A stretch of 64,000 nt of DNA from Patescibacteria group bacterium (lineage in GTDB: Bacteria; Patescibacteriota; Microgenomatia; UBA10105; UBA927): NCBI GenBank assembly GCA_038062895.1, contig JBBTWJ010000006.1, positions 48,862 to 112,861 on the forward strand, given 5' to 3'. The first letter of the stretch is position 1, and every line of letters starts with the position of its first letter. Positions 40,891 to 56,965 of this stretch are shown here, one piece after another. Both the position numbers and the translations under genes were made by a program. The notes beneath the pieces were generated by a model. It was not told where the DNA came from. It saw nothing but the letters and a program-made list of their open reading frames with translations, and did not search any database.

Positions 40891-41828
40891 ATTGTTGCCC
40901 GGAGCACAAAGACATCTCCTTTATTCATTCTATCGATGAGCCATTCAAACGGATAAAAAAGCAGCACCAGCCATTGCGTATGAATGAGATTCGATCGTAT
41001 GCCAAACTTCTCCCGCAGGATGTATTGAATGCTCCCAAGCAATCCTCCCGCCGAACAAAACTCCACATGGCTCACGCTAAATCCTGATCGGACGACGGCC
41101 TGCTGAAGCGTCAGGGGCGAAAATAATACGAGATGACGGGGAGCATCTAGATTATACCAATAGGTCCCGAATATATGAGCCAGGAAACTCTCCACGTTTG
41201 GCGTACCGATGATCAGCTGACCTCCTTTTTTCAACTTTTTTTTGATAAGCCGCAAGCATCGCATAGGATCATCCAAATGCTCAATCACGTGGTAGAGGCG
41301 CACTGCATCAAAATAATTGTCAGGATACGATGAAATATCCTGATAAAACCCAACACGGACATGATCCACTCCCCGCTTTTTTGCAACCCCGACCGCCGCC
41401 TCGTCGATATCCATCCCGAACGTCTCCCATCCAAACTCTTTTAAGAGCATAAGCGTATCCCCCACCCCGCATCCGACGTCTAATATCTTCCCATCGGTTA
41501 TGAGATGGGGAAGCGCCGGGACGTTCGGCAGCAGCATCGCCAAAATTTTACTTACAGGAGTTGGATGATTGCTTGCGCGGACTAAATACGTACGAAGCTT
41601 CGCAAAAAAACTCCCATTCCCTTTTGAGTCGTATGCGTAATATTTTTTTGGAGGGTAATACGGAGCCACTTGAGCCTCTGACAGCATAGGAAATAACGAT
41701 ACGGCAGAACAATTCTGACATTTGACAAACGTAAACGCCCCTGGCAGTTCAAACATCCTGTCTTTCGCACTCAAAAGACGTCGACACGACTTGCCGCCGC
41801 AAAGCGGACACTCAAACAGTGATTTCAT
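40887..41828 (-). CDS. class I SAM-dependent methyltransferase with N-terminal zinc-ribbon
   Basis: 313 aa; CPLCGG...CQNC zinc ribbon; motif I ILDVGCGVGD; VIEHLDDP. Confidence 0.8.
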   Translation of the reverse strand: MKSLFECPLCGGKSCRRLLSAKDRMFELPGAFTFVKCQNCSAVSLFPMLSEAQVAPYYPPKKYYAYDSKGNGSFFAKLRTYLVRASNHPTPVSKILAMLLPNVPALPHLITDGKILDVGCGVGDTLMLLKEFGWETFGMDIDEAAVGVAKKRGVDHVRVGFYQDISSYPDNYFDAVRLYHVIEHLDDPMRCLRLIKKKLKKGGQLIIGTPNVESFLAHIFGTYWYNLDAPRHLVLFSPLTLQQAVVRSGFSVSHVEFCSAGGLLGSIQYILREKFGIRSNLIHTQWLVLLFYPFEWLIDRMNKGDVFVLRATI

Positions 41829-42888
41829 ATTGAGAAAGAATTACGTGGCGGTATCTTTTTGCATCCAAGAGTAAGCAAAAGTAATAATATAATCCTGGAT
41901 TATAATAGATAGATCTTCGTATTCCCCTATCGGTAACTTTTCTTATATTCTGTTGTATGTTGTTTCTTTTTTTAAGAGTCGTTTGCAAATTGACCAAATT
42001 CCACCACCATCCTTTCAAAATTGCCGCTACAACACCAAGCCGCAACGACATAAGAAAATAAAACAGGACTCCTATCTGAAAAACGGCAAAAACCGGATAA
42101 ATGGTGGCAAGATACAACGTTCCAAAATTTTTAAGATATGAACAATTCATATTTTTAAACGTGAGATACACTCTGCGCTCGTAGTTATAGGTATCCGTTG
42201 TATCGCCACCAGCCACGTGATAGATGTAAGAATCCGGCTGATAGAGGACTTTATATCCGGCAAGCCATAACCGGTGGCACAAATCGGTTTCCTCAAAGAA
42301 GATAAAAAAATCCTCATCAAATCCTCCTACCTCTTCAAACGCATGCTTGGGAATCAGCATGCACGCGCCTTTAGCGGAAAATACTACTCTCGTGGTCCGG
42401 TACATAGGTAAACGATGAACTTTTCGATATCCGTAGTGATATAAAAATCCGGACATAGTGAGGTACGCGCCAGCCTCATCAAGTAAATCCGGGTGATCCA
42501 TAACGCGCATTTCCGGCTGAACGCAACCGATATGAGGATCCCGCTTGCAAGCCTCAATTATGGGTAGTAAAAATTCTTTCGAAACCTTCGTATCATTATT
42601 GAGAAATAATAGATATTGACCGGCGGCCGTCCTGGCTCCAATATTATTTCCTCCGGCAAATCCGTTATTTTTGTCACTCGCAATTACCTTTACCTTAGGA
42701 AAATTTTTTCTCATATACGATACGGAGCCATCCGAAGAATTATTATCTACAACGATAATCTCAATGAGAGGATTTTTGATCTGAACCAAAGAAGATACAC
42801 ACGTATGGAGAAATTTTTTCCCGTTCCAATTGAGGATAATCACGGAAACCAACGGGGCTCTTGAAATCATATAAGCTTCTTGCTCCAA
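41812..42888 (-). CDS. glycosyltransferase family 2 (GT-A)
   Basis: 358 aa; VSVIILNWNGKKFLHTCV...VVDNNSSDGS, DxD; C-terminal TM segments. Confidence 0.85.
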   Translation of the reverse strand: MEQEAYMISRAPLVSVIILNWNGKKFLHTCVSSLVQIKNPLIEIIVVDNNSSDGSVSYMRKNFPKVKVIASDKNNGFAGGNNIGARTAAGQYLLFLNNDTKVSKEFLLPIIEACKRDPHIGCVQPEMRVMDHPDLLDEAGAYLTMSGFLYHYGYRKVHRLPMYRTTRVVFSAKGACMLIPKHAFEEVGGFDEDFFIFFEETDLCHRLWLAGYKVLYQPDSYIYHVAGGDTTDTYNYERRVYLTFKNMNCSYLKNFGTLYLATIYPVFAVFQIGVLFYFLMSLRLGVVAAILKGWWWNLVNLQTTLKKRNNIQQNIRKVTDRGIRRSIYYNPGLYYYFCLLLDAKRYRHVILSQYEITV

Positions 42889-43949
42889 ATGGCAGGAGTA
42901 TCCTCGGTCTCAAGCTCAAGCCCGTCGCTCAAGTATTGAAATTGCTGTGGTCCCATCGTTTTGGCCCACGCGACCATCTTTGCGACACCCTGCGCAAGCG
43001 TCACACTTGTTTTATACCCCAATAGCTTCACCGCCTTGTCATGAGTACAATAGGCCTCCTTAACTTCCTGAGGTCGGAGAGCCAGGTATTTGGGCTTCAA
43101 GTGCTTTGGGACGTTCCCATCAGGAAAAAATGTTTGGATCACAATATCGGACAACTGATTGATCGTATACTCCTCTTTCGGTCCGATATTAATTATCTCT
43201 CCATTGACAGCATCTAAGAAGCCAGTTTTTACAAAATACGGATTAAAGTCATCTATGTAGGTGAATGCCCGTTTTTGCTCGCCATCTCCATAAATATAAA
43301 AATTCTTGTTGCTGAGAAGACAATTGATAAATATCCCGATGACATTCCTATACGGATCCGCTAAATTTTGCTTCGGACCATAGACGTTATGCGGTCGAAC
43401 GATGACATACTCAAATCCATGAACTTTTGATAAAATTTCAGTAGCCTCCTCCATAGCGGTCTTGGCTATGGCATAAACATCTTCAGGAATCCGCCTCATG
43501 CTTTCCGTAAAGGGAGTCTGTTGAGCACCATAGACACTCATAGAACTCGTCAGGACTACTTTCTTTAAACCATGACGGATACTTGGAATAAGTGTATAAA
43601 GATAAGCAAGATAATTACGTTCAGTCGCCGATATGGGGGTAAATTGACTCCTGCCTTCTGTGGCGTCAGCGGCTAAATGGTAGAGAAGTTCCGGTTTGAC
43701 TCCTGCGATATATTTTTCGGTTTTATCTTTATCACGCAGATCCAATACCGTAAATTTTGATTTCGGACTCACATTTCTGGTATACCCTCCCGAAAGGTCA
43801 TCGACGCCATATACCTCGTGACTCCCCATCGCGACAAGCGAGTCCACGAGATGGCTTCCCATGAAACCGGCAGCTCCGGTCACTAGAATTCTCATGGGTT
43901 TATTATACAGGGACTCGCCTTTCTTTGGAAGCGAGGAAGACCAATGCAA
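42867..43949 (-). CDS. NAD-dependent epimerase/dehydratase (SDR; UDP-glucuronate decarboxylase/4-epimerase-like); probable start Met at 43895
   Basis: MRILVTGAAGFMGSHLV Rossmann motif; YxxxK present (YAIAK). Confidence 0.8.
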   Translation of the reverse strand: MHWSSSLPKKGESLYNKPMRILVTGAAGFMGSHLVDSLVAMGSHEVYGVDDLSGGYTRNVSPKSKFTVLDLRDKDKTEKYIAGVKPELLYHLAADATEGRSQFTPISATERNYLAYLYTLIPSIRHGLKKVVLTSSMSVYGAQQTPFTESMRRIPEDVYAIAKTAMEEATEILSKVHGFEYVIVRPHNVYGPKQNLADPYRNVIGIFINCLLSNKNFYIYGDGEQKRAFTYIDDFNPYFVKTGFLDAVNGEIINIGPKEEYTINQLSDIVIQTFFPDGNVPKHLKPKYLALRPQEVKEAYCTHDKAVKLLGYKTSVTLAQGVAKMVAWAKTMGPQQFQYLSDGLELETEDTPAIWSKKLI

Positions 43950-46089
43950 CTGCCAAAACAGTCAAAAGAGAAACTCCCAAGCCCCATGTCACGTAGTTCT
44001 GCGGCTCAAATTCTACGACGCCTTCATATGTACCGGGGGTAGAAATTAAAAAGCTATTTAATCCTTGCGGTGATCGCTCGGACTTAACCATCGTATTTCC
44101 CACTCTTAACACCCACCCAGGATGGTAACTCTGGGAAAAATAGACGGTAGCCGGAGCATTAACGGTCAAAGAAACCGCGTATTGATCCATACGGATTCGT
44201 CTGTATGTAATCGACTCGTTGGTCGAAACCCAAAAAAGATCTCTATGCCGTGGAGTCTGGTAGATCGTAAGATTGCCGGAACGGATCTTGGTAAGCCATC
44301 CGACCCCATCAAGAACCGTTTCGTATTCCTGCCGCTTCTTCTTATCATATTTTCGATCACTCAAAAATAACTCACCCAGCGAGTCATATGGGATCATGAC
44401 ATACCCTATCCCCAAATCTTCTAAAAGCGCCTTACCCGTGGGCGCCTCCAGTTTCACTTTCAAATCAGCGGCCGTCGTAACGGCAAAGAGTGGCTCGCTC
44501 TCAATCTGCATATGATCAAGTGTCCCATAAGAAAACCGCTGTAGACGGGGCACCCAAAGCGTGCGGGCAAAATTTGTCTGCGCCTGCAAGAAATGCTCAA
44601 GTTCCGCGTATTCCTGCGGCACCGTCTGCGCAACATACGTCCCCCCAAGCTGGCCGAGGACAGCGGGACGGATGGTGAAAAACCAGAAGAAGAGGAAGGT
44701 AGCTAGTAGTATGTAGTTCGTAGTAAGGAGGATACTATTTGTCTTTTTTGCCTTGCTACTTACCACCTGCTGCAAGCTACGGAAAAGTTCGCTTAGTTGC
44801 TTCAGCGTAAACGGAATCAAGATTGAATATGCTAGCGCGATCAACACGTACCATTTCGTGGGATCCCGGAACATCGCAAATCCGGGGACGTGGGTAAACA
44901 TCCATTGATACACGATTCCAAACGGTTCCTGCGCGCCCTTGGCAAGAAATGTGCCCAGTATGGCAAGGAGAGCAAAAAATCCTATCTGTTGTCTGCTCTT
45001 TGCTCTCTGCCCCGCCCATGCGAGCGCTGCAAACGCGAGCACTGGTAGCACGAGAAACTCAGGCTGTAAAAAATATGTCTTTCCAAACACATTCTCCGGC
45101 CAGTTGGGATGGAGAAGCGAGAGAGCGTGGGAAAAATCCGCGAAACTATAAAATTTAATCGAATCTATTGACGTGTATGCCGACCCCAAATCTCCGATCG
45201 GGTTACTTCTCATGGCCACCATCGGGACGACCCAAAACGCATTAAGCAGAGCTGCAATACCTACAGCAAACGCAAAACCAAGAAACGTCCAGAGTAATAC
45301 TTGAAAAAAATGTTCTTTTATATTAACGAAGTAACCCTTCCTCGCCGGCCCGCTTCGCCCGCCTAGCCGCGAGGCTGGCCGAATCGAGGCGAGCAGGCGG
45401 GGAACGAACGAACTAACAACCCACAATGAAACCCCTACCATCGTCACGTACGCAATCCGGGGATCGATCATGAGTTGAAACCCTAATGATAATCCTGTAA
45501 TCAAGGAATATTTGTTATTTGCTATTTGATATTTGTTATTTACACTCTGGTCGCATACTAATGTTAAAAGCTTGATAAAGCTCGCCAGAACAAGAGGAGC
45601 CAGACCGTAGGCAATGGCCACTCCCATCTGCCCGCCCCCCGTCACCATGAGGATGTAGGTATTCGTGGTATAGACGAGCGACGCGACTATCCACCACGGA
45701 AACATATCTCTTAAGTCTTGAGTCTTAAGTCTAAAGTCTTGAATCACAGCTTCCCAGAGCTTTTTGGACCCGTAAACAGATAACGCGATAAACAACCCAA
45801 ACCATCCGACTTTATACACAATATTCCATGGGATGTGCAGCCACTGATTAAAAATGACTACGATAGCAGAGCCAAAAACATGCAATCCGAGGAGGGGCTG
45901 CATACCCCCAATCCCATTCCCTAACCATGATTGCCAAAGTGTAGGGAGAAGAGAGAAACTCCTCAAAAAGTCCTGGGTATAATATGGCCAATCTCCGCCA
46001 ATAATCAACGGGTTTAAAAGCCAATTACGGAATATATACAAAACCGTAATAAACACAACCGATACACAAAAATAATAATATTTTTTCAT
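43903..46089 (-). CDS. large GT-C-like polytopic membrane protein (paralog 1 of 3)
   Basis: 728 aa; ~12 N-terminal TM segments, large extracytoplasmic middle region, C-terminal TM anchor; N-terminal loop LNPLIIGGDWPYYTQD resembles LKPGEMDLGGDNSRLYFYD of the 46950 and 53368 proteins; carries GC-rich hairpin insert at 45340-45405. Confidence 0.5.
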   Translation of the reverse strand: MKKYYYFCVSVVFITVLYIFRNWLLNPLIIGGDWPYYTQDFLRSFSLLPTLWQSWLGNGIGGMQPLLGLHVFGSAIVVIFNQWLHIPWNIVYKVGWFGLFIALSVYGSKKLWEAVIQDFRLKTQDLRDMFPWWIVASLVYTTNTYILMVTGGGQMGVAIAYGLAPLVLASFIKLLTLVCDQSVNNKYQIANNKYSLITGLSLGFQLMIDPRIAYVTMVGVSLWVVSSFVPRLLASIRPASRLGGRSGPARKGYFVNIKEHFFQVLLWTFLGFAFAVGIAALLNAFWVVPMVAMRSNPIGDLGSAYTSIDSIKFYSFADFSHALSLLHPNWPENVFGKTYFLQPEFLVLPVLAFAALAWAGQRAKSRQQIGFFALLAILGTFLAKGAQEPFGIVYQWMFTHVPGFAMFRDPTKWYVLIALAYSILIPFTLKQLSELFRSLQQVVSSKAKKTNSILLTTNYILLATFLFFWFFTIRPAVLGQLGGTYVAQTVPQEYAELEHFLQAQTNFARTLWVPRLQRFSYGTLDHMQIESEPLFAVTTAADLKVKLEAPTGKALLEDLGIGYVMIPYDSLGELFLSDRKYDKKKRQEYETVLDGVGWLTKIRSGNLTIYQTPRHRDLFWVSTNESITYRRIRMDQYAVSLTVNAPATVYFSQSYHPGWVLRVGNTMVKSERSPQGLNSFLISTPGTYEGVVEFEPQNYVTWGLGVSLLTVLAVALVFLASKERRVPV

Positions 46090-46931
46090 TTCACAAGCTT
46101 AATACACGCTACAGCGCGGGATGCAGCGCAGTATGATTTTTCAATATGTTTCTGGGAATATCTCACGTGCGAACATTCCTTTTCTGTGGAAAGCTGCCAT
46201 CCGCTTTCATTATATTGATAATAACTTATATCAAATGATGAGGGATCAAACGCCTTAATGAGCTCTCGCACCATAGCTGTATCGAAAACCTGATACCAAT
46301 CATGATCTTCATATGCACCAAATGGAATCGTGATAAGGCAAATACCCTTTTTTATCAAAATTCTTTTGAATTCTTTCACAACCAATAGATAATCTTTTTT
46401 ATTCTTTTGCTTATAACCACCATCAGGTATGTAGATACTGTTGTCCATTCCAACATGCTCTAATACTGACACGCAGGAAATTGAATCAAAAAATCCGTCC
46501 GTAAATATTTTCTTCCTCAAATCTCCGAAAATATACGAAATATATTTATCTACATAACAATTTTTTTCTGGATTTAGATTAACAATAAATATTTTTAGGT
46601 TTCTTAGCTGATGACTCAAAAGTATGGTTCGAAAATTGAACGAAGCACCCGCATCTAAATGATTACCCTTACTTGGAAGATGGGAAATTGCCCAAGGTAT
46701 CTCAACAATTCTTTCGCTCAATCCTACTCCTAATTTAGGAGGTAACGATTTTTTGTATCTAAATAAATTTAGATCAAATGTAATCAATCTTTCCATCTCC
46801 ACAAATAAATGAGATACAAAAATAATTTCTCCAATCACAAAGGGAACCTTATTCCACCAAGGAAAAAATATATTGATAAAATCTCTTAGATAAATATAAA
46901 TAAATTCTTTGACTCCGTGGGTTACGCTCAT
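46086..46931 (-). CDS. hypothetical protein, SAM-methyltransferase-like fold
   Basis: 281 aa; LDAGAS...SVLEHVG pattern reminiscent of class I MTases; weak. Confidence 0.4.
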   Translation of the reverse strand: MSVTHGVKEFIYIYLRDFINIFFPWWNKVPFVIGEIIFVSHLFVEMERLITFDLNLFRYKKSLPPKLGVGLSERIVEIPWAISHLPSKGNHLDAGASFNFRTILLSHQLRNLKIFIVNLNPEKNCYVDKYISYIFGDLRKKIFTDGFFDSISCVSVLEHVGMDNSIYIPDGGYKQKNKKDYLLVVKEFKRILIKKGICLITIPFGAYEDHDWYQVFDTAMVRELIKAFDPSSFDISYYQYNESGWQLSTEKECSHVRYSQKHIEKSYCAASRAVACIKLVK

Positions 46932-46949
46932 ACGTCCTATATTGACAGT

Positions 46950-49900
46950 CTATTTTCTCAAAAATAGCTTAAGACACAGAAAAAGGATAATAAGTAAACC
47001 AAATCCTGACAGCAATAAACTTCCGTAAAATAACTTCTGAGACGTCATTTCTATGATAAGGGTGTAATCGCTCCGGTTATTCACATCCTCGGGCTTAATA
47101 ACCCATGAATTCGCATATCCGTTTACCGGCAAATGGGACTTTTCTGCGATCGGATCAAATCCCCACGTGTCAAATGTATCCCGGTTCCAAAAATCAATTC
47201 TATGTTTGCCTTCTTGGATCGCTCCGTTTGCATAGCTTGCGACGATCGCATTGCTTCCCTCGGTCGTTTCAGGAATAATTGACTTTGTAACTGATCCTAA
47301 TATGCCTCCCACAACTCTCGCCAGCATGCCTTTTATGGTTTTTGCTTCATGTTCGAGGCTGGGATAAAACAGTTTCCATTTTTGGTTAAATGACTGGGAC
47401 AAGACAAGTGCGTACGGGCCTTTCGCATCCCTCACCTCCACCGTATATTTTGTGGGGTTTATTTGGGTGAACGTGATGCGTGGAATCGCAGAAATAGTGG
47501 ATTGCGGGATGGATTTTAATACGATATTAGGATTATAAATTTTTTGCACAGTCAGATTTTTAATCTCTATTTTCTTAATTGTTTCTTCATCCTGACTCAC
47601 GACATCATCCAAATCCCTCGTGATTTGTAATGAAGCTGAAGAAGCATCTTTTGCGGATAAAACGGCAACCTTAAACTTCCGCCATTCCTTCGACCTGATC
47701 GTTTCCTCATATGCGTCATTCACAAATCTGTTGGTTTCTGTATCACCCTTTTCATGCAAAACCATTAAAAAGTTCTGATCATTGGTCAAATAGTCAAAAG
47801 AAATGGCGTATATTGTATCTCCCTCCCAATTGGGGATGTCACGCAAGAGTCCGCTTGTATCACTTAAAAAGTTATACATTACGGCCAGAGTTACCGGATC
47901 GGTCTCTATCGCTCCTTGTTCTTTCCCTAAGCTTATTTGTTCCGCCACAGTCCAATGCGTTTGTGCGACCAAATTTGGAACTGAACGAATCGAAAGAACC
48001 AGCGGCAATGACTGTTTATTTTCAACTTGCATATCGCTATATTTCAGCCATTCCTCATATTGAGCTTCCATGGGTGATAATTTCATCCCACCAACACTCA
48101 AATCTATTGGAAGATCATCCATGTCGTTCTTATTGACGTATACTTCATATTTTCCATTTGGAAGAGGATTTTCCACAATATACGGAATGTTCCCAACATC
48201 CGGCAAGTCAAGACTCAATGAATTGTGTATATCAATAAACATCCCATCTATTAAACCCGAAAGGTACCGCCTGTCTTCAGTGTTTAACGAAGAATCTTGC
48301 CGTATGGCAGTCCTCAACTTCTCCTTATGCTCCTTTAAATATGTCTTTAATTCGACCTTGCTAGTAGTTCTTGAATATGCGGATTGATTGGTAGAATCTA
48401 TCTCGATAATAATTTTTTTTATCGCTTGTTGATATCGTGCGAGCGTGACCTCCCATGAATTGTATTCACTAAACTTAAAAAACTCCCAGAGCGTTGGCTC
48501 TCTCCACTGTTGAGCGAATTGGGATATGCTCGCAATGTTTCTCCGAAGCGGAGTATCTTTTAGTTCATAGAGTTCGTTGATACGCTTCTCTGCAAAATAG
48601 ATACTCCTGTCAATATACGCATCATTGATGTCTCCGTATCGATTGAGATCCCGTTTTTCACGCAATACGACCAATGGGTAAATGAACGAAGAAAGTTTCC
48701 TCGATACGGTGGGAGAAACAAACCGGTCAGACTTTTTCTTTTTAAAAAAATCAAAAATCGTACTGGTGTTTCTTGCTTTCAAAAGGACGGTATCAAATAA
48801 TTCCTGCCTGGCGTTGAAAATCGTACTGTCGTCAAAGAAGGCTACCCGTTTATCGGTATAAAAAGAAACGGGAGTACTCGCGTTTACCGCAATAACGTCA
48901 CCGGAGTATGCGATACTTTTTGGAGTATAAATATGCGGAATATAGGACGTATCATCGAACTCATAAATATGAAATGTATTGGCAATGGTTTTTATCTCTT
49001 TCACCCCGAGTCCTTTTATGAATTCTTTGTACCCCTCTTGAGTGTCAGGAAAAAAATCACGGGCACGTGTATACGGTAACGCCGGAAAATTATCTCCATA
49101 AATATACGGATCAGCGTTATAAAAAATGTATTTAATATTCAACATAATAAGAATATTTTTTAACTTGGTGTAATTTTTTTCTTTTGCAGCAGCCAGAATA
49201 CTCTCACCAAAAACACCAAGCTCTGCTATGCTGGTAAATTCATTCCTTGCTGCCAAGTATGTGATCGTGGACGGACCGATATATGCTGCATCATTTTCAC
49301 CTTTCAGCACTTGATATCCATGGTCGTTAAGCGGTAACGATAATATCTTGCCATCCACAGGGAGTGACCTGATAAAGGCAAGCACATCTTCATACACCGG
49401 GTCCATTTTTATATGGGACCGGATGTCTTTACTTTGCCAAAGCTTCGTATCTGTCAATTGTCCACTGATAAATTGCCATGAGGTTGAGACCAGGAGAATG
49501 ACGATGAACCCCGTGAGGACATATCTTTCAGCCGCTCTAATTTTTGTAAACACACTGGAGAGAGCCAAACCAACCAGTACCGTGTAAAAAAACAAATACG
49601 CCCATTGCCACTGGCCATAAAAAACACGGAACATGGCAAATCCGGGCAACCGGAACGCCAACTCATACAGCTTCAGTCCGATATGAGTAATATTGGCCGA
49701 AACAAAAAATAGCGTAATGAGAAAAAATATCGTACTTAACAGGTATAGTTTGCTCTTATTCCATAATAATCCCAGCACAAACAGGAGTGGAAAAAGTATA
49801 AAGATCCACCAATAAAATTTTGGCTCCGTATATTGCAACAGGCCGAGCAGCGCATAACTCACTTTGATGGACGGTGCTGTGGCCACGAAATATTTGAGTC

Positions 49901-50768
49901 CCCACTCTAATTTGCCTTGAGCTCCGAAAATAAAATCGCCTAAGAAACTTCCCGGAGTCAATATGCTCACTATTTGCGGTATGAGATGAAATGCCTGCAG
50001 AAGAACAAAAAGCACCAGGCCAACTGCAATTTTTGCTATCGGGATTGATTTCCTTTTTATATATTTGGTGTAAATGCCAAGAAACAGAACTGCGAGCGGG
50101 AAAAAAGAAAAAAATGTGGGAGAACCAATGAAACTAAAATTTGAAGAAAAAATAAATGTCACAAGGAGCGACACCAACAGGTATCTCATACCGCCGGTCA
50201 GAAAAAACCGCAAAAGGAGAAAAAACAATAACGGATTGAGAAAAACTACATTCATGGGCAAAAGTGGATACCCCCACCAATGAATAGGATTTGGAGAAAA
50301 TGTGTAATAAAGACCAGCGAGAATTCCCGATGTCTCTATTATTGATTGATTCGGCCTTACTGCTTCTTCCTCTCCTTTCAGGAGCTCCTTTACTACCAGA
50401 TAACAGGCAAAGAATCCAAGGCTTAGATTGAGCCCATGAAATATCGAAATAACTATTGTCGGGGAATGTACTATTGATTTAATAAATGCCAGGAGCAAAA
50501 AGAATGGAATCGCATAGTAGCTCAAATTTTCTCCCCCGAACGCCGAATGAGAAACGCTATATGTTGACTGGCTCAAAAGATACGCAATGGGATCATAAAA
50601 ATACAGTCTGCTGTTATCTCCTCCTAGATCCATTTCTCCCGGCTTAAGCCAGAAAAACGGAATGAAAAAAATCAGAATGGTTATGACAAAAACCAATAGC
50701 GAATAACGTGATATTTTCATGTTCGTAATTCCTGAATAATTCCAACGATCATAAAGAGAAATAACCAA
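46950..50768 (-). CDS. giant GT-C-like membrane protein (paralog 2; AftD/DUF3367-like architecture); probable start Met at 50720
   Basis: 1272 aa; N-terminal FWLKPGEMDLGGDNSRLYFYDP and RLPGFAMFRVFYGQWQWAYLFFY shared with 53368-55779 protein; ~14 TM then ~800 aa extracytoplasmic region and C-terminal TM anchor. Confidence 0.55.
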   Translation of the reverse strand: MVISLYDRWNYSGITNMKISRYSLLVFVITILIFFIPFFWLKPGEMDLGGDNSRLYFYDPIAYLLSQSTYSVSHSAFGGENLSYYAIPFFLLLAFIKSIVHSPTIVISIFHGLNLSLGFFACYLVVKELLKGEEEAVRPNQSIIETSGILAGLYYTFSPNPIHWWGYPLLPMNVVFLNPLLFFLLLRFFLTGGMRYLLVSLLVTFIFSSNFSFIGSPTFFSFFPLAVLFLGIYTKYIKRKSIPIAKIAVGLVLFVLLQAFHLIPQIVSILTPGSFLGDFIFGAQGKLEWGLKYFVATAPSIKVSYALLGLLQYTEPKFYWWIFILFPLLFVLGLLWNKSKLYLLSTIFFLITLFFVSANITHIGLKLYELAFRLPGFAMFRVFYGQWQWAYLFFYTVLVGLALSSVFTKIRAAERYVLTGFIVILLVSTSWQFISGQLTDTKLWQSKDIRSHIKMDPVYEDVLAFIRSLPVDGKILSLPLNDHGYQVLKGENDAAYIGPSTITYLAARNEFTSIAELGVFGESILAAAKEKNYTKLKNILIMLNIKYIFYNADPYIYGDNFPALPYTRARDFFPDTQEGYKEFIKGLGVKEIKTIANTFHIYEFDDTSYIPHIYTPKSIAYSGDVIAVNASTPVSFYTDKRVAFFDDSTIFNARQELFDTVLLKARNTSTIFDFFKKKKSDRFVSPTVSRKLSSFIYPLVVLREKRDLNRYGDINDAYIDRSIYFAEKRINELYELKDTPLRRNIASISQFAQQWREPTLWEFFKFSEYNSWEVTLARYQQAIKKIIIEIDSTNQSAYSRTTSKVELKTYLKEHKEKLRTAIRQDSSLNTEDRRYLSGLIDGMFIDIHNSLSLDLPDVGNIPYIVENPLPNGKYEVYVNKNDMDDLPIDLSVGGMKLSPMEAQYEEWLKYSDMQVENKQSLPLVLSIRSVPNLVAQTHWTVAEQISLGKEQGAIETDPVTLAVMYNFLSDTSGLLRDIPNWEGDTIYAISFDYLTNDQNFLMVLHEKGDTETNRFVNDAYEETIRSKEWRKFKVAVLSAKDASSASLQITRDLDDVVSQDEETIKKIEIKNLTVQKIYNPNIVLKSIPQSTISAIPRITFTQINPTKYTVEVRDAKGPYALVLSQSFNQKWKLFYPSLEHEAKTIKGMLARVVGGILGSVTKSIIPETTEGSNAIVASYANGAIQEGKHRIDFWNRDTFDTWGFDPIAEKSHLPVNGYANSWVIKPEDVNNRSDYTLIIEMTSQKLFYGSLLLSGFGLLIILFLCLKLFLRK

Positions 50769-51085
50769 ACGCTAAATTTTTCCGTAGTAACTGACGCAGA
50801 GGAAGAAAAAAAACTAATACCCAATGCCGTCAAGAACAATAAACATAACAAAAAAGTGAGTTTGCTGGTTATATGGGTCATTTTTGCGTATATTCCATAT
50901 GCCGCCAAAACGCCAAACGTTATGACATCCGAGCTGGTTTTGAGAAAGATGCTATCGATAAAAATTGCTCCTACGAGGGACACCAAAATCACTTGTTTAT
51001 TCTGTTCTAAAAAAGTGACTATTTTTCCACGGTACATAGATCTATAAACGATAGCATTCATGACGTAGGACCAGATTCTATTCAT
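50717..51085 (-). CDS. small 4-TM membrane protein (paralog of 52980-53336)
   Basis: 122 aa; C-terminal VWLFLFMIVGIIQELRT matches VWLYLFLVLGIYQKWRE of the other copy. Confidence 0.5.
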   Translation of the reverse strand: MNRIWSYVMNAIVYRSMYRGKIVTFLEQNKQVILVSLVGAIFIDSIFLKTSSDVITFGVLAAYGIYAKMTHITSKLTFLLCLLFLTALGISFFSSSASVTTEKFSVWLFLFMIVGIIQELRT

Positions 51086-51104
51086 AGGAATAGTGCATTA
51101 TAAA

Positions 51105-52013
51105 CTATCCAGCATGGTGTTCCCACCACCGGCACTCATCTGCATACAGCTTCATACGTTCAAATGTTTCTTTCAGACCTTCCTCAATGGTGTACCGGGG
51201 TGTCCAGCCAGTGAGACGCTTCACCAGGGCTACATCGGCAGTAAAATTCATAGGGCCGGACACGGGCTTTTCCAAATCCTTAATCTTTTTACCGGATAAC
51301 TCCCCGATAATCTGCGCGATGCGACCCACGCTTACCGACTGTCCGGTGCCTAAATTCACCGGGCCGGTATAATCCGTTTCAAGCAGTTTGACGATCGCAT
51401 CAGCAGCATCCGGAGTATAGAGAAAATCACGAACCGGCTTGGTATTCCACAAGGTCACTTCATTTGGCGAAAGCGCCTGTTGGATGAGCGTCGGAACCAA
51501 ATCCGGTCTCACGAGTTTCGTCGGACCATAAATATTACTAAACCGGGCGATGATGCTGGGAATTTTCGAAGCATAAAAACGCACTAACTCCTCCGACAAA
51601 TATTTACTGAATACATAATCATTGATATAGGGATCAGTGGGCTGCGTCTCGTCAACCGGCAACTTCATTTTGTTCACGTCGTACAAGAGAATCGTGGAAA
51701 AACACATGAATTTCTTGATTGTTCTCTTTTGCAGGTAAAAAAGTATTTTTTTAAGAGGAAGGACGTTATACTCAAGTCCCATACTCGGCTTGGTATTAAT
51801 GATGTGGTGGTTAGAGCTGCCAACGAGAAAAATGACCTTGTCAAACTCCAGATCATCCAGAGCCGTCAGGTCATCAAGGCTCGGTAAAAAGACATGCTTG
51901 TTTTTAAGTTGCGCGGACAACGGACTGCGGCCAATGGAAATGATATCCGGATACTTTTCCAAAATGATCGGACCCAGGAAACCACTTCCCCCGAATAATA
52001 CGGTATTACTCAT
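51105..52013 (-). CDS. NAD(P)-dependent epimerase/reductase (SDR family)
   Basis: 302 aa; LFGGSGFLG Rossmann-like motif, YxxxK (YVFSK). Confidence 0.7.
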   Translation of the reverse strand: MSNTVLFGGSGFLGPIILEKYPDIISIGRSPLSAQLKNKHVFLPSLDDLTALDDLEFDKVIFLVGSSNHHIINTKPSMGLEYNVLPLKKILFYLQKRTIKKFMCFSTILLYDVNKMKLPVDETQPTDPYINDYVFSKYLSEELVRFYASKIPSIIARFSNIYGPTKLVRPDLVPTLIQQALSPNEVTLWNTKPVRDFLYTPDAADAIVKLLETDYTGPVNLGTGQSVSVGRIAQIIGELSGKKIKDLEKPVSGPMNFTADVALVKRLTGWTPRYTIEEGLKETFERMKLYADECRWWEHHAG

Positions 52014-52972
52014 ACTTTTGATGAGGCAGCTTCATAGTTCTGTTCAAACCACGAAATAGTTTTTTGTAAGCCCGTTGCCAGATCAAATGCTGGCTTCCAC
52101 TTCAGTTTCTCCTGCATGTGGGTAATATCACATACTTTGCGCAGTGCTCCATCCGGTCCGGACGTATTCCACTTAATCTCTCCAGAGTATCCGGAGATCT
52201 CCTTTATGAGTTCGGCAAGCTCGGCAATTGGCGTTTCCACTCCGGTACCGATGTTGAGGGGCATTTCCTCATCATAACGTTCTGCAGCGCTCAGAACCCC
52301 GTCCGCGGCGTCCTCAACATACAGGAGCTCCCGGATAGCCCGCCCGGATCCTAACACTTCCACAGACGGATCGCTACCACGCTTGGCATCGACAAACTTC
52401 TTGATAAGCGCGGAAGCGACATGGGACCGTTCGATACTAAAGACATCCCGCGGCCCGTACATGTTCGTCAAAAGGAGCGTAATTGAATTGAGGCCATATT
52501 GCTGCCGGTATGCGTTACTGCCTATATACATCGCGCGTTTCGAAAAACCATACGCCTCTACGCTTCTATGCATTGGTCCGTTCATAAACTCCTCCTCACG
52601 GAAATATCCGGTCGGAAGCTCTCCGGGATAGGCGCACGTGGAACCGATGTTTACCAGCTTTTCGGCATGAGATACATGCGCGGCTTTGAGAACATTGATA
52701 TTTATCCTCACATTGGTATCAAAAAGATCCGCAGGGTTTTTCAAAATGTTGAGAAGCCCACTGATAGCTCCTGCACAATTGATGACGAGATCCGGCTTCT
52801 CGCGGAGGAAATAATCGATACTCGCTTTTTCCTGGGTCAGATCAAGTTCCCCGTGCGACGGCGCAAGGAGATGAACGTCGAAACGTTCCAGTTTATCGGT
52901 TATGTGGCTTGCTAAAAATCCGCTTCCGCCTAAAAGGAGTACTTTTTTATTTTGTAATTTCATAATGACCAC
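52010..52972 (-). CDS. fcl: GDP-L-fucose synthase (GDP-4-keto-6-deoxy-D-mannose 3,5-epimerase/4-reductase)
   Basis: 320 aa; aligns with E. coli Fcl across length: VINCAGAISGLLNILKNPADLFDTNVRININVL...IGSTCAYP, KPDGALRKVCDIT. Confidence 0.8.
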   Translation of the reverse strand: MVIMKLQNKKVLLLGGSGFLASHITDKLERFDVHLLAPSHGELDLTQEKASIDYFLREKPDLVINCAGAISGLLNILKNPADLFDTNVRININVLKAAHVSHAEKLVNIGSTCAYPGELPTGYFREEEFMNGPMHRSVEAYGFSKRAMYIGSNAYRQQYGLNSITLLLTNMYGPRDVFSIERSHVASALIKKFVDAKRGSDPSVEVLGSGRAIRELLYVEDAADGVLSAAERYDEEMPLNIGTGVETPIAELAELIKEISGYSGEIKWNTSGPDGALRKVCDITHMQEKLKWKPAFDLATGLQKTISWFEQNYEAASSKV

Positions 52973-52979
52973 CGTATAT

Positions 52980-53336
52980 TCATTCTCTCCATTTTTGATA
53001 TATGCCTAAAACCAAAAATAAATACAACCACACCGCAAATCGTTCTACCGCCGGAACCAGCGGCTGATAGAAAAGCAATGGATCTGTCCACAAGTACATC
53101 ACATAGGTCAAAATGAGTAACAATAACGAAAAAAGAAGGGTCACCGTGCTCGTCAGCGCGAAACGCTTAATCAGATAAAAGAAAAATAAGAGTATGCCGA
53201 ATATCCGTATGTCAGAACTGATGGGAAAAAGAATAACATCACCCATGATGAGGACAAAAACCGGTATCAGGAAAAATAATTTATTCTTCTTGATAAAACC
53301 GATGCTTTTCGTGATAAATCCTGTTATTGCCCGCAT
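52980..53336 (-). CDS. small 4-TM membrane protein (paralog of 50717-51085)
   Basis: 118 aa; see paralog. Confidence 0.5.
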   Translation of the reverse strand: MRAITGFITKSIGFIKKNKLFFLIPVFVLIMGDVILFPISSDIRIFGILLFFFYLIKRFALTSTVTLLFSLLLLILTYVMYLWTDPLLFYQPLVPAVERFAVWLYLFLVLGIYQKWRE

Positions 53337-53367
53337 AGTTATAGAAATACTTTAGATCAATATAGTA

Positions 53368-55779
53368 TCACTTTTTCCTTAAAATGGATGCCCCGTAGAG
53401 CAAAAAAACGCATATCGCCACTATCGAAATGGCAGCACTGTAATAAAATACCCGTTGTTCAACCATCTCGACGATTATTTCATACTGCTCTCTACCCGAA
53501 CTATCTTCTGGCGTGATATACCATGCATTCGCATACCCGTTCACCAAAAAATGCTGATTGTCCGGAATACTTGGCATACCCAATGTTTCAAACGTTTTGG
53601 CATTCAGAAAAATATCATCATGCGCAGACTCGCGAATGCTTCCGTCAAAATAACTCCCATTTACCTGCAACTCTTCACCTTCTTTCTTCGATATATAGAG
53701 CTTCCAGCGAGAGTGATATTTATCAGAAAATACGAGGGTATACGGATTTCGCGCTCCAGATACTTGCACTCTATATTTTGTAGGGTTTATCCGTTTGTAG
53801 GTTACGACCGGCAGACCTCCTGTCGTCTCTATGGCATGTTGTGTACACGTTTGCGCTGTAAATACACTGTCACAAACAGTACGCTCTACAAATGCTACTC
53901 TCGGTTCGCTTAATGGTGTGGTAAAAAATGACGCATAATCCGGCTCTTTTTTCTCTTGCGTATCAAACGGATACACGGTGGCCGGAATATAGAAACGGGG
54001 AAGATATTCTTTCACATCTGCTTCCAATACGCGGTAGTATCCCTGTTCAAATATTTTTGGCCCCGCGATAGACCCAACCAAATCCGCAAGCGCCTTGTCA
54101 TCCGGAACAGCTTCAAGAAATAGTCCGTATGGGAAGGCGGGAAAAAATTGCTTATACGCCTTCGGGTCTGCGCTATAAAAAATATATTTGACGTTGAGCA
54201 AACCGAGTAAACGTCTGACCGCACCATAATTTTTATCTTTAATTAATTGAAGAAATAAATTGGAAAAAGGAGCAATATCCTGATATCCGCTATAATCGTG
54301 TCTTCCGGTAAGGTATGCAGTAGGAGATACGCCGATATATGCCCCGTTATTCGTCCCTGCGATAAGCTGATATGCGTAATCGGTAAACGGAAAATTAATG
54401 ATTTTTCCATCGTCCGGTATTGCTTTAAGGAATGCAAGCGATTGTTCATAATCTGGATTTATTTTCATAATGTTCGTCATATTGTTTGAACCCCAAAGAG
54501 GCGCTTTGAGAAGGTCACCACTGATAAACGTCCAACTGCTGTAGATAAAAAATCCGGCGATGATGACCGACAACACATAGACAGAACGTAAACGTAATTT
54601 AGCAAATACTACGAAAGACAAATAGCCGAATAATACCGAATAAAAAAATGCATAGACCCATTGCCACTGACCATAAAACACCCGGAACATACCAAATCCA
54701 GGGATGGAGAATAGCTTCCTATAGATCTCCACGCCAAGTTGGGTGATATTAGCCGATGTCAAAAACAGCGTGACGAAAAAAAATGAAGTCAGAAGGGCAA
54801 GGTCTCTCCCGATCCGTTTACTCAACAAATATCCCAGAATTATCATAAGAGGCACCGCTAAGGTGGCCCATCGAACCTCGGGCAAGGAATACGTATAAAA
54901 TATGTTTTTACTCACCTTGCCAAGACCCAACACCGCATTAAAATAATTTAATCCTTCATTTTTCGCAGCCGTTGCTTCGAGCAGTCGCTGGCCTAAATAG
55001 CTGCTTTTATCAAACGTATAGGAAACTACCGGAATGATGTGAAACGCATGGATACCCAAAAAGAGAATGACCCCAATGAATATATATTTCCAGGGTAATG
55101 ACTTTTTTATGACAAATTTCACATAGAGAGCCAAAAAACAAAGCGCTAATGGGTAAAAAGCAAAAAGAGGTGGCGGCGCGATTAACGTAAAATTCGGAGA
55201 AAAAAGAAAGGTGACCAATAGTGTGAGCCACAAATATTTAGCGTTATCCGTAAACAAAAATTTCATTATCAGATAAAACATCACGGGGTTGAGGAATACC
55301 TGGTTATGCGTGAGAAGTGCCGCATGCATATTAGCCCCGACACTCGGAGAGAACGTATAAAAAAGTCCGGCCAATATTCCGGCTAAATCAGCTTGCGACT
55401 CCTTCGATTTGTCAACATGAGGCTTGAGCATCTCAACGACGATAAGATAGACAAAGAAAAAAGCCCCGACGAGCTTAAGCGCGTTTGATACATTGATCAG
55501 AAGATACGGCGAATGGAAAATGGAATCGATTATTTTAAGTACAAAAAGATAGGGGATAAGATTCTGATTCGGAGCTACTACGCCGTTATTGCCGGGTTGA
55601 ACGCTATATAAGCTCGTCGATCGCAGGAACGCTCCTGGGTCATATAAATACAACCTGCTACTGTCCCCCCCTAACTCCAACTCGCCGGGCTTGAGCCAAA
55701 GAAAAGGAAGAAGAAATAAAAGGATACAAATTACCCAAAGCGTTATTTTTACCCTGAAAATCGACGCATAACTTGCCAT
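53368..55779 (-). CDS. large GT-C-like membrane protein (paralog 3)
   Basis: 803 aa; LWLKPGELELGGDSSRLYLYDP, SIPGFGMFRVFYGQWQWVYAFFY; same architecture as 46950-50768 protein with shorter extracytoplasmic region. Confidence 0.55.
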   Translation of the reverse strand: MASYASIFRVKITLWVICILLFLLPFLWLKPGELELGGDSSRLYLYDPGAFLRSTSLYSVQPGNNGVVAPNQNLIPYLFVLKIIDSIFHSPYLLINVSNALKLVGAFFFVYLIVVEMLKPHVDKSKESQADLAGILAGLFYTFSPSVGANMHAALLTHNQVFLNPVMFYLIMKFLFTDNAKYLWLTLLVTFLFSPNFTLIAPPPLFAFYPLALCFLALYVKFVIKKSLPWKYIFIGVILFLGIHAFHIIPVVSYTFDKSSYLGQRLLEATAAKNEGLNYFNAVLGLGKVSKNIFYTYSLPEVRWATLAVPLMIILGYLLSKRIGRDLALLTSFFFVTLFLTSANITQLGVEIYRKLFSIPGFGMFRVFYGQWQWVYAFFYSVLFGYLSFVVFAKLRLRSVYVLSVIIAGFFIYSSWTFISGDLLKAPLWGSNNMTNIMKINPDYEQSLAFLKAIPDDGKIINFPFTDYAYQLIAGTNNGAYIGVSPTAYLTGRHDYSGYQDIAPFSNLFLQLIKDKNYGAVRRLLGLLNVKYIFYSADPKAYKQFFPAFPYGLFLEAVPDDKALADLVGSIAGPKIFEQGYYRVLEADVKEYLPRFYIPATVYPFDTQEKKEPDYASFFTTPLSEPRVAFVERTVCDSVFTAQTCTQHAIETTGGLPVVTYKRINPTKYRVQVSGARNPYTLVFSDKYHSRWKLYISKKEGEELQVNGSYFDGSIRESAHDDIFLNAKTFETLGMPSIPDNQHFLVNGYANAWYITPEDSSGREQYEIIVEMVEQRVFYYSAAISIVAICVFLLYGASILRKK

Positions 55780-55784
55780 ACAAT

Positions 55785-56942
55785 TTATGCAAAAGAAAAC
55801 ATGGAAGGATAAATTTTTTTGTAATAAAATTTCTGACTCAACGTATAAGCATTCTTACTATAAAAAGAATATCTCGAAATAATTTTTTTGACCGCCTCAA
55901 CAAAAGCACGGGGATCTTTAGAGTTGATAACAATGCCAGCCTCTGTTTTTTCCACTTCTTCGGCAAATTCTAATATATCCGTGGTAATAACGGGCATCCC
56001 CAAACTCAAATAGCGTTTGATCTTCCCAGGATCACCGTAATGTGAAACGTTACTTACGTCAGAATCGTATGTGGCGATACCAATCGAACATTTTTTCAAA
56101 ACTTCATTGAACGACTCTCCCTCTAAATATCCGTAGAAGGTAGTATTTATTTTTGATTTTTTAGCCCTTTCTTTAATGTAATTCTCATCAGGACCTGATC
56201 CAATAATCTCATATCCTACATCTCCAAATTCATCCAGCAACGTATCATCATTGTCAAAAACAGTGACGACCCCTTGACTCTTTTTTAGCACGCCGATAAA
56301 CCCAAACACGATTCTATCGGGCTTATACTTCTTTATGAACGGAAATCTATCAGTCCCAATCGGTATAATTTTATGCTTTGCGTTTTTCTGAAAAATACCT
56401 ATATCTTTCCGTAAATTTAACAGGCGTCGGTTTACAAACGTAACTGTGTCCGAATAAGAACTAATTTTATCGAATTGCCAATAAATAAAACGCATCAACA
56501 TCACGATTTTATTTTCATGTAGCGGAGGATAATAATCCCATACCCAAAATATAGTTTTATCAACAACTCCAATTCCCTTCAAAAGACTTCCTATCCAAGC
56601 GGTGAAGGCATTAACCGTAAAGTATATATCTATAGAATTGTATTTCATCCTCAACCAAGATGAAAATAGAATCACTTCCAAACAGGTAATGATGGATCGT
56701 ATCGGAATTAACAAAAATACAAATTTTTGAATGAGGGGTATTTGAAATAATGAAAATGTCCTCTGAAGGTTACCGTCAAAATATATCTCGAGTGTATTAT
56801 AATTTCTTTTGTTCCGTAAATTATGAAAACCAATAGAAAAAACAAAAACTTTCTGAAAATTTTCTACTATATAATCCAAAATTTTCCCAGAATTTTCATA
56901 CGGAGAATAATTTACATATATAATGGATTTGCTTCTTCTCAT
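55785..56942 (-). CDS. glycosyltransferase (GT-B fold, GT1/GT4-like, divergent)
   Basis: 385 aa; C-terminal region with GYLEGESF...IATYDSDVS..GDPGKIKRYLSLGMPVITTD resembling Glycos_transf_1. Confidence 0.55.
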   Translation of the reverse strand: MRRSKSIIYVNYSPYENSGKILDYIVENFQKVFVFSIGFHNLRNKRNYNTLEIYFDGNLQRTFSLFQIPLIQKFVFLLIPIRSIITCLEVILFSSWLRMKYNSIDIYFTVNAFTAWIGSLLKGIGVVDKTIFWVWDYYPPLHENKIVMLMRFIYWQFDKISSYSDTVTFVNRRLLNLRKDIGIFQKNAKHKIIPIGTDRFPFIKKYKPDRIVFGFIGVLKKSQGVVTVFDNDDTLLDEFGDVGYEIIGSGPDENYIKERAKKSKINTTFYGYLEGESFNEVLKKCSIGIATYDSDVSNVSHYGDPGKIKRYLSLGMPVITTDILEFAEEVEKTEAGIVINSKDPRAFVEAVKKIISRYSFYSKNAYTLSQKFYYKKIYPSMFSFA

Positions 56943-56965
56943 AGGAATGATGGAATGATATCATA

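Follow-up and report, generated by a model that had tools for sequence, protein, structure and literature searches.

The DNA analysed here (the window) is a stretch of 64,000 nucleotides (nt) from the Patescibacteria group bacterium assembly GCA_038062895.1 (contig JBBTWJ010000006.1, positions 48,862 to 112,861). It carries genes for three large membrane proteins, here called A, B and C, and for two small ones, sB and sC, which together form the cassette considered below. The five open reading frames (ORFs) are present as given in a preliminary description of the window, and all lie on the minus strand. Read in that direction, the cassette begins with C (53368-55779), an 803-residue membrane protein with the GT-C glycosyltransferase fold, which consists of 11 transmembrane (TM) helices, an extracytoplasmic domain of ~355 residues and a C-terminal TM anchor, and is 100% identical to the NCBI entry 'hypothetical protein AAB557_03295, Patescibacteria group bacterium'. 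It is followed 31 nt downstream by sC (52980-53336), a 118-residue protein with four TM segments, and further on by sB (50717-51085), a 122-residue protein with four hydrophobic segments in the family alignment; both belong to what we call the S family, whose profile matches sB. Next are B (46950-50720), a GT-C-fold paralog of C with an extra extracytoplasmic insert of ~430 residues, and A (43903-46089), a 728-residue GT-C-fold membrane protein with a C-terminal β domain and TM anchor. The mechanical ORF of B (46950-50768) reaches a TTG at 50768 and gives 1272 residues; comparison with orthologs suggests that the true start is likely to be the ATG at 50720, giving 1256 residues. In the DNA this ATG, which begins MKISRYSLL, overlaps the TGA stop codon of sB (ATGA, 50717-50720), which implies translational coupling of sB and B.

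BLASTP aligns B and C with 40% identity over 645 residues (E 8e-137), and with 33% identity over the last 182 residues. The insert in B lies between these two shared blocks, at approximately residues 655-1090, and found no match in Pfam and PDB sequence searches. At this level of similarity we regard B and C as true and unambiguous paralogs. The pairwise BLASTP comparison of A with C gives E 5e-4 at the C-terminal β domain, E 0.15 at the PGFxMFR motif, and nothing else. Homologs were gathered among 90%-identity protein clusters (at least 327 for C and at least 958 for A), and family alignments comprised 40 C members, 42 A members and 23 B orthologs. With hhalign, the C-family and A-family profiles align end to end (99.3%, E 2.4e-20, 624 columns), in register at the GGD after TM1, at the PGFxMFR loop and at the C-terminal β domain, while the B-family and A-family profiles align over the membrane domain (96.8%, E 2.3e-10). 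These alignments show one architecture and one origin for all three proteins, with A as a genuine but distant relative of B and C rather than a close paralog. The preliminary description, which called the three proteins paralogs, was right for B and C and overstated the closeness of A. The shared motifs that it quoted do align in pairwise and profile comparisons, but in their long form they are confined to B and C. The sequences of A read IIGGDWPYY and PGFAMFRDPTK, so that what it has in common with B and C is limited to the cores GGD and PGFxMFR.

In a neighbour-joining tree built from the membrane domains, the B-type proteins form one clade, apart from the clades of C and of C', a further protein of the same kind found in other loci. 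The B and C of the window each cluster with orthologs from other genomes in this tree. Because B and C form orthologous groups across genomes, their paralogy is old, and the arrangement of three GT-C genes is the norm for the lineage. A recent local triplication is rejected, since the orthologous groups are common to many genomes.

The helices of the AlphaFold2 model, combined with the positive-inside rule, give C a topology of 11 TM helices, an ecto-domain at residues 420-775 that consists of an α/β region followed by a β-sandwich, and a final TM anchor; there are K/R residues on every loop assigned as cytoplasmic. The model of A has a helix set comparable to the 11-TM module of C. A single C-terminal TM helix is present in A, B and C, as seen in the AlphaFold2 models of A and C and in the hydropathy of all three, in agreement with the earlier suggestion of a large extracytoplasmic region closed by one TM anchor.

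The conserved residues of C cluster on the outside of the membrane. They are found in the first extracytoplasmic loop (EL1: E33, G37, G38, D39, S40, R42, Y46, D47 and P48), at the outer end of TM4 (H158-P165), and in the loop between TM9 and TM10 (S342-T346 and P360-R366). D39 lies in the EL1 sequence KPGELELGGDSSRLYLYDP (codon at 55663-55665, minus strand) and is invariant in the 40 family members. The family profiles align it with D33 of A (45991-45993, minus strand; IIGGDWPYY), which is invariant in the 42 A-family members, and the GGD motif in EL1 of B provides D35 (50616-50618, minus strand), which is invariant in the 23 B orthologs. In solved GT-C enzymes the proposed catalytic Asp follows TM1 (PMC11127046), and in the mycobacterial enzyme AftD the essential residue D41 occurs shortly after TM1 (bioRxiv 10.1101/2019.12.22.885152). 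D39, D35 and D33 correspond to this position, making each of them a putative catalytic base. The PGFGMFR motif of C (54682-54702, minus strand), in the outer TM9-TM10 loop, contains the invariant residues P360, F362, F365 and R366; it is aligned with PGFxMFR in A, and B orthologs have PGF..FR. We suggest that this loop may be a donor-phosphate or active-site loop.

Structures were predicted with AlphaFold2 using the family alignments as input, and the models are confident, with pLDDT 87 and pTM 0.88 for C, and pLDDT 80 and pTM 0.80 for A. A Foldseek search of the PDB with C returned AftD (6W98) first (E 2.5e-9), followed by yeast and human STT3, ArnT and PglB. For A, AftD was again first (E 2.6e-8), followed by AglB (9e-6), AftA (5e-4) and ArnT. 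The Foldseek probability was 1.00 for the GT-C matches AftD, STT3, AglB, AftA and ArnT, with E values from 2.5e-9 to 9e-3. The proteins show the features of class A GT-C enzymes: a module of 7-13 TM helices with a cytoplasmic N-terminus, similarity of fold, and an acidic residue in EL1 after TM1. Judging from the models, the closest solved relative of A and C is mycobacterial AftD. The C-terminal module resembles that of YfhO. We therefore agree with the original comparison of these proteins to AftD and YfhO, and find no credible match to the non-glycosyltransferase families, such as transporters, that would have contradicted it, as the structure search places both A and C in the GT-C fold.

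At the level of sequence the relationship to AftD is less direct. A WWE3 homolog of 1179 residues, from the candidate phyla radiation (CPR, or Patescibacteria), passes the gathering score of the Pfam family PF11847, GT-C_AftD or DUF3367 (36.6 against 26 bits), and is matched collinearly by the B and C profiles (E 1e-39 and 7e-35, respectively); a sequence search with it found no AftD. PF11847 is not matched by A, B or C, and two of the 42 A-family members match it weakly (8e-5). As only the WWE3 homolog passes this model, the relation of B and C to the AftD family is transitive, at the level of the superfamily. The last ~100 positions of the YfhO model PF09586 are matched by four of the 42 A-family members, one of them above the cut-off (32.8 against 28.5 bits); Pfam gives no PF09586 match for protein A of the window itself. 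Members of the A family also touch PF20176 (DUF6541), and 7 of the 40 C-family members weakly match a TMEM260-like O-mannosyltransferase GT-C model. No NCBIfam model comes near its cut-off for A, B, C, sB or sC, the sole match being a partial one of A (residues 346-434) to MmpA (E 1.6e-8), and where a database homolog of the three large proteins has a name, it is 'hypothetical protein'. The proteins had been described as unassigned, and in the family databases they are. Because they fall below the Pfam thresholds and do not have the five-TM bundle of AftD, we file A, B and C as new families inside the GT-C superfamily, and not as members of the AftD or YfhO families.

The small proteins sB and sC are paralogs (29% identity, E 1e-11), as had been proposed, although their C-termini, said to be near-identical, are similar, with 11 of 21 residues identical. 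S proteins are 100-126 residues long and have four hydrophobic segments according to the family alignment and hydropathy. D42, E98, W103 and G111 (sC numbering) are nearly invariant, and K/R-rich segments are found on both sides of TM1 and in the stretch that connects TM2 to TM3. We infer that both termini are cytoplasmic and that the conserved D and E lie near the outer surface, because of the placement of the K/R-rich segments and because a methyltransferase, which is cytoplasmic, can be fused at the C-terminus of S. S genes are closely linked to GT-C genes: 41 of 42 (in 28 loci) lie no more than 150 nt from a GT-C gene or from another S gene, and 28 of the 42 are flanked in this way on both sides. 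In WWE3, S overlaps the end of the AftD-type GT-C gene that was validated by Pfam.

The size of the S family depends on the search. A word-indexed homolog search with the S profile gave 9 proteins, and an exhaustive search of representatives was needed, which gave 642 representatives of 50%-identity clusters (E <=1e-3); most of these are standalone and 100-140 residues long. Some are fused to other domains. Several relatives, including one within a cassette (locus L021), carry a C-terminal FkbM methyltransferase; others have an N-terminal ecto-domain before S, or S followed by extra TM helices and an IPT/TIG domain, or three S domains in tandem. In CPR, S appears to serve as a membrane module that can be used in different proteins. 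Neither sB nor sC has a Pfam or NCBIfam match. No SMR or EamA family occurs among the 25 most frequent of the 55 Pfam families that match S proteins weakly (E <=10), and a phmmer search with GtrA, ArnE and ArnF found no match among the 2367 ORFs of all fetched loci, this being a weak test made with single reference sequences. S does share with GtrA/GtcA proteins the general character of a small protein of ~120 residues with 3-4 TM helices that is encoded with a GT-C enzyme. Relationship to GtrA, SMR, ArnE/F or the TM part of GtrB is not supported, with no significant match by Pfam, hhalign or phmmer in tests that are weak because single sequences served as references, and by these comparisons S is best described as an orphan family, and a new family of small membrane proteins.

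We note two further features of the fusions. In the proteins P0361, P0376, P0396, P0344 and P0394, S is preceded by one TM helix and a conserved β-rich ecto-domain of ~170 residues, which has the motif ...NLGIVAVRFNTY...LVFRLKE...FTFGFP... and no Pfam match. P0394 is the protein with three S domains in tandem.

We mapped the C/B, A and S profiles onto 73 loci. About 28 of these, from different species of Patescibacteria, have co-directional genes in the order [C']-C-S-(S)-B-A, with typical sizes of ~765 residues for C', ~800 for C, ~115 for S (in one or two copies), ~1200-1270 for B, in places followed by (S-S-B), and ~680 for A. The cassette occurs in the complete Levybacteria genome CP066685 as well as in metagenome contigs. 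When GTDB species were scanned, each represented by one genome, full-length relatives turned up in Patescibacteria only, namely in Levy- and Gottesmanbacteria, 'Microgenomates' and unclassified entries; several third-party annotation assemblies in the scan are titled 'Gammaproteobacteria', apparently by default. The idea that the system is specific to its lineage has thus held up at this sampling. The idea that a triplication makes this locus unusual has not: the three-GT-C arrangement is conserved in about 28 loci, and B and C belong to old, separate clades.

Genes for sugar metabolism are inserted into the cassette of the window and surround it. Between sC and sB are two genes for sugar epimerase/dehydratase-like proteins that depend on nicotinamide adenine dinucleotide (52010-52972 and 51105-52013, minus strand). 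This pair (51105-52972) clusters with the window's own paralogs annotated by Pfam as Epimerase/GDP_Man_Dehyd, and a close relative (L079) has the same insertion between sC and sB, annotated as Epimerase. We consider the pair to be variable cargo of the cassette. Between B and A is a gene for a soluble protein of 281 residues (46086-46931, minus strand), without a TM segment and with a weak signature of S-adenosylmethionine-dependent methyltransferases (Pfam Methyltransf_11, E 0.001, just under the cut-off); methyltransferases are frequent in or near the cassette in other loci. Both insertions recur in close relatives. Downstream of A are an epimerase/dehydratase gene (42867-43949) and a gene for a 358-residue GT2 with a C-terminal hydrophobic segment (41812-42888; TM at residues 272-290), both identified by Pfam and on the minus strand. 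They form a conserved pair, which also occurs right after A in L002 and in L080; in L080 a methyltransferase gene comes next. Immediately upstream of C is a GT4 glycosyltransferase gene (55785-56942, minus strand; Pfam Glycos_transf_1 and Glyco_trans_1_4). The genes that recur most often near the cassette encode nucleoside diphosphate-sugar epimerases/dehydratases (25 loci), GT4 (21), methyltransferases (20), GT2 (18), nucleotidyl-transferases (13) and DegT aminotransferases (13).

In the window, these genes form part of a glycan locus of about 45 kb (~18.1-63 kb). Its genes encode a phosphoglycosyl transferase and numerous glycosyltransferases of the GT2 and GT4 families, besides epimerases, acetyl- and methyltransferases, WbqC, a formyltransferase and two DegT aminotransferases. 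A PMT_2-type GT-C and a giant membrane protein resembling Wzy_C/IctB are also encoded. From this gene content the glycan is predicted to contain deoxy-sugars that are methylated, aminated and formylated. A GT2 of 243 residues without a TM segment (36794-37525, minus strand) is a candidate polyprenyl-phosphate sugar synthase: its best NCBIfam matches include PgfS (2e-19), ArnC (1.6e-13), AglJ, dolichyl-phosphate hexose transferase and PpgS, all of them far under the cut-offs and alongside other GT2 models such as PgaC. A GT2 of this kind also occurs in two other loci. L017 has a standalone C-S pair with an ArnC-like GT2 directly after it (PRK10714, E 3e-54, near full length), and L035 has such a pair with an ArnC-like GT2 ~3.7 kb further on.

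The cassette can be compared with several known systems. Mycobacterial AftD belongs to a set of GT-C enzymes that use a polyprenyl-phosphate sugar to make arabinan on the outer side of the membrane (see also PMC11127046). In AftD, as in A and C, a GT-C module of 11 TM helices precedes a large extracytoplasmic domain, and its D41 after TM1 corresponds to the invariant D39/D35/D33 of C/B/A. It differs in having 16 TM helices, including a C-terminal 5-TM bundle that binds acyl carrier protein, where the C-terminus of A, B and C has one TM helix; and in having three carbohydrate-binding modules, where the ecto-domain of C has one α/β region and a β-sandwich. A and C are also much smaller than AftD, B being the exception, and the organisms are Actinobacteria in one case and Patescibacteria in the other. 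No genes for the decaprenyl-phosphoarabinose pathway were seen: there are no UbiA-type or DprE1-type matches among the ~50 ORFs scanned in the 64 kb of the window. MmpA (NCgl2761/Rv0226c; NCBIfam NF053599), which is reported to be homologous to the TM domain of AftD (PMC8698533), is partially matched by A around the PGFxMFRD motif. This match reaches 33.6 bits, where the cut-off is 210, and MmpA is a protein of ~474 residues found in Corynebacterineae only, which functions in trehalose-mycolate transport.

In the Gtr and CsbB-GtcA-YfhO systems, the latter from Firmicutes, a GT2 lipid-sugar synthase works with a small protein of 3-4 TM helices and a GT-C (PMC8035078; PMC11127046). YfhO resembles our proteins in being a GT-C with a large ecto-domain and a C-terminal TM helix, as well as in the match of its C-terminal ~100 positions to A-family members noted above, and the C-S pairs with an ArnC-like GT2 in L017 and L035 form similar trios. 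However, S is not of the GtrA family, the YfhO model finds no match in the N-terminal TM domains of the large proteins, and three GT-C genes are fixed in one cassette here. The Arn pathway offers a parallel in gene order: arnT-arnE-arnF of E. coli, like C-S-(S), is a GT-C gene followed by one or two genes for small 4-TM proteins with overlapping codons, and genes for a DegT aminotransferase, a formyltransferase and an ArnC-like GT2 also occur in our loci. S nevertheless has no sequence similarity to ArnE/ArnF, ArnT ranks below AftD in the structure searches, and lipid A, which is not expected in this lineage, would not be the acceptor. Finally, the GT136 and other three-component pentofuranose systems (Kelly et al. 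2024, PMC11127046) also carry out extracytoplasmic glycosylation by GT-C enzymes, after polymerisation. Their GT-C has a C-terminal carbohydrate-binding module and a catalytic Asp after TM1, and auxiliary epimerases diversify the sugar; they differ in using a MATE flippase and a synthase dependent on phosphoribosyl pyrophosphate, and no such genes were seen here.

We consider it probable that A, B and C are three divergent membrane glycosyltransferases of the class A GT-C fold (B through its 40% identity to C), which use lipid-linked donors to act on a surface glycan, with S as their partner. The nucleotide-sugar enzymes of the ~45-kb locus would make modified sugars, which a GT2 would load onto polyprenyl phosphate at the cytoplasmic face of the membrane. 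The lipid-linked sugar would be moved to the outer face, where C, B and A, possibly acting in sequence, would transfer sugars onto a cell-surface glycan, their ecto-domains, including the extra insert of B, holding the acceptor. S would be a dedicated partner of the C/B-type enzymes, most likely either as a flippase for the donor or as a subunit presenting it, by analogy with ArnE/F following ArnT and with GtrA/GtcA alongside GtrC/YfhO. The cassette thus probably makes a cell-surface sugar polymer on the outer side of the membrane, or decorates one there. Of this reading, the analysis establishes the fold, the homology, the conserved motifs that face outwards, and the conserved cassette in which S and GT-C genes are tightly linked; the type of donor, the acceptor, the order of action and the part played by S are inferred. 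The preliminary description had proposed an extracytoplasmic machinery for glycan polymerisation or decoration; the GT-C fold and the context of the locus support such a machinery, and sequence does not distinguish the two activities.

A number of observations weigh against this reading. The TM-scores of the Foldseek matches are moderate (0.44-0.52), with large root-mean-square deviations. None of the three large proteins matches any Pfam model at E <=1, those of GT-C enzymes included, and PDB sequence searches gave no match, whether with single sequences or with the A, B and C family profiles. The ArnC/GtrB-like GT2 that would supply the donor is absent from within 10 kb of most cassettes. 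The donor-handling role of S meets further difficulties. At E <=10, Pfam detects GtrA (PF04138) in none of the 43 S proteins scanned. The hhalign probability is 0.1% against E. coli GtrA, <=0.15% against ArnE/ArnF, and <1% against the TM parts of E. coli GtrB and the ArnC-like GT2 of L017, all of these being weak tests against single references. The polar residues D42 and E98 are predicted to lie at the outer membrane boundary and not in the membrane core, and the range of fusions is as compatible with a docking or scaffold module as with a flippase.

The last point bears on a different role for S, as a membrane anchor or activator of soluble enzymes such as the TM-less 243-residue GT2 or sugar methyltransferases, in the manner of GacJ with GacI or DPM3 with DPM1. 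This fits with the N-terminal S of the FkbM-type fusions in several relatives, once in a cassette (L021), and with the lack of TM helices in the window's candidate polyprenyl-phosphate sugar synthase, and small membrane partners such as GacJ are documented for GT-A enzymes (review PMC8035078). But S adjoins, and is translationally coupled with, GT-C genes and not GT2 or methyltransferase genes; it is also fused to extracytoplasmic domains; and the ArnC-like GT2 of L017, which at 308 residues covers nearly all of the 316-position ArnC model, probably has a membrane segment of its own. We therefore hold an anchor role for S to be rather unlikely. Less probable again is that A, B and C glycosylate proteins such as pilins, S-layer or other surface proteins, as oligosaccharyl- or glycosyl-transferases in the style of STT3/AglB/PglB or PMT/TMEM260, instead of lengthening a polysaccharide. 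STT3 and AglB are indeed the second tier of Foldseek matches (E 5e-5 to 9e-6), the C-terminal globular domain of AglB (3vu0) is matched with E 0.17/0.41 and a target-normalised TM-score of 0.53/0.42, the TMEM260-like model is weakly matched by the C-family members counted above, and both the window and L080 encode a PMT_2-type GT-C close to the cassette. However, the best match of both models is AftD, which extends a glycan; the WWD motif (WWDYG-type) of oligosaccharyltransferases (GT66) is absent from A, B and C; the phosphoglycosyl transferase and the many Leloir glycosyltransferases of the locus are typical of polysaccharide assembly; and no gene for an acceptor protein is conserved in the cassette. 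We judge this explanation unlikely.

The relationship to MmpA raises the question of whether one or more of A, B and C might be a non-catalytic scaffold or lipid-delivery factor of GT-C fold, which would organise a complex for envelope assembly instead of transferring sugars. Such a role has been proposed for MmpA, which is described as related to AftD but devoid of recognisable catalytic domains, and may be non-catalytic (PMC8698533); the partial match of A to it is again the relevant evidence, and counts against an enzymatic role. Across the 23-42 diverse members of each family, the Asp that follows TM1 and the loop motifs that face outwards do not vary, as expected of an active site under selection, and we regard a scaffold as very unlikely. 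That the proteins are secondary transporters or permeases is hardly credible: MFS, GLUT and LeuT structures do occur low in the Foldseek lists, but with E >0.02, probability <=0.2 and TM-scores of ~0.07-0.11, where the GT-C matches have a probability of 1.00, and there is no transporter match in Pfam or NCBIfam. The Foldseek ranks effectively refute a transporter identity.

Patescibacteria are mostly uncultivated, tiny and often epibiotic, and little is known of how their envelope is built chemically. Three families of large 'hypothetical' proteins can now be assigned a fold and a plausible activity, and a new family of small membrane proteins has been defined. The cassette is conserved across many species-level genomes, inside large and variable loci for sugar biosynthesis. 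If A, B, C and S act as lipid-linked-donor glycosyltransferases with a dedicated partner, it follows that CPR assemble some of their surface glycan on the outer side of the membrane, with lipid-linked sugars as the building blocks, and the cassette would serve as a genomic marker for such systems. What is new is a fixed cassette of several GT-C genes with their own small partner, restricted to CPR, as a variant of multi-component transmembrane glycosylation; the literature that we searched contains no paper linking GT-C, YfhO or AftD with Patescibacteria/CPR. The cassette and the S family provide concrete, testable leads into the biogenesis of the CPR envelope. More speculatively, and with rather low confidence, Microgenomates-type Patescibacteria and WWE3 could possess a dedicated, lineage-specific line for assembling glycan outside the cytoplasm. 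In it, polyprenyl-monophosphate sugars delivered by S would be polymerised to a surface polysaccharide by three or four AftD-like GT-C enzymes acting in sequence. CPR would then have their own equivalent of arabinan or lipomannan synthesis in mycobacteria, and S would then be a previously unrecognised donor carrier, unrelated to GtrA, SMR, Wzx or MATE flippases.

The 1060-residue protein encoded at 26524-29706 (minus strand), the giant membrane protein of the glycan locus, had been described as a fusion of Wzy_C-like and GT-C parts. It has a weak N-terminal match of the IctB/Wzy_C type (TIGR00947, E 2.4e-7), in agreement with the first part; the GT-C part finds no support. The protein has 27 partly overlapping hydrophobic windows in a hydropathy scan and no Pfam or PDB sequence match. 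We reject it as a relative of the A and C families (hhalign <1%, no PDB sequence match). The start of the neighbouring gene for a 488-residue GT-C of PMT/PMT_2 type (25061-26527, minus strand) overlaps it by 4 nt.

The C-terminal β domain, with its HFxVNGYAN-type motif, and the TM anchor are also found in other large membrane proteins (loci L038-L073), which come from Bathyarchaeota, Methanosarcinaceae, Woesearchaeota, Dehalococcoidia and others. In these loci genes for DPM1-like GT2 proteins of ~250 residues often lie within 10 kb. In the WWE3 locus L074 (9920-14386), the AftD-type GT-C and S genes are followed by five co-directional genes encoding proteins of 153, 248, 250, 488 and 308 residues. 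The 248-residue product is an adh_short reductase and the other four have no Pfam match on record; the run could be an undescribed pathway for lipid-sugar modification.

The base composition of the window is uneven. Within the cassette (43903-50720) the G+C content is 0.48 in the 44-46 kb bin, which holds gene A, and 0.37-0.40 in the 46-50 kb bins, which hold gene B; this hints at a mosaic origin or at recombination between cassettes. At 56000-64000 it is 0.33-0.36, compared with 0.43-0.50 in most of the window. This stretch contains genes for an epimerase, a formyltransferase, WbqC, a second epimerase and a DegT aminotransferase on the plus strand (56966-61526) and for two methyltransferases on the minus strand (61566-62950), and may be a horizontally acquired module. 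A local dip to 0.39 at 38-40 kb, in the middle of the glycan locus, coincides with a gene pair for an AbiEi antitoxin (37541-38116, minus strand; NCBIfam E 2.3e-14) and an AbiEii toxin (38113-38817, minus strand; Pfam E 3e-22). Between GT4 genes of the glycan locus there is a gene for a BRO-N domain protein (20960-21784, minus strand), a domain typical of antirepressor-like proteins of phages and mobile elements.

At the upstream edge of the glycan locus is a gene for a 679-residue DUF4012 protein (15931-17970, minus strand), which is adjoined by the Bac_transf phosphoglycosyl transferase gene (18100-18738). Beyond it, at 901-9684, is a division/cell-wall (dcw) cluster that encodes a MurA-like protein of the EPSP-synthase fold, MurB, two Mur ligases, a Cu-oxidase_4 protein, a penicillin-binding protein transpeptidase, MraW and MraZ, from which we conclude that the organism makes peptidoglycan.

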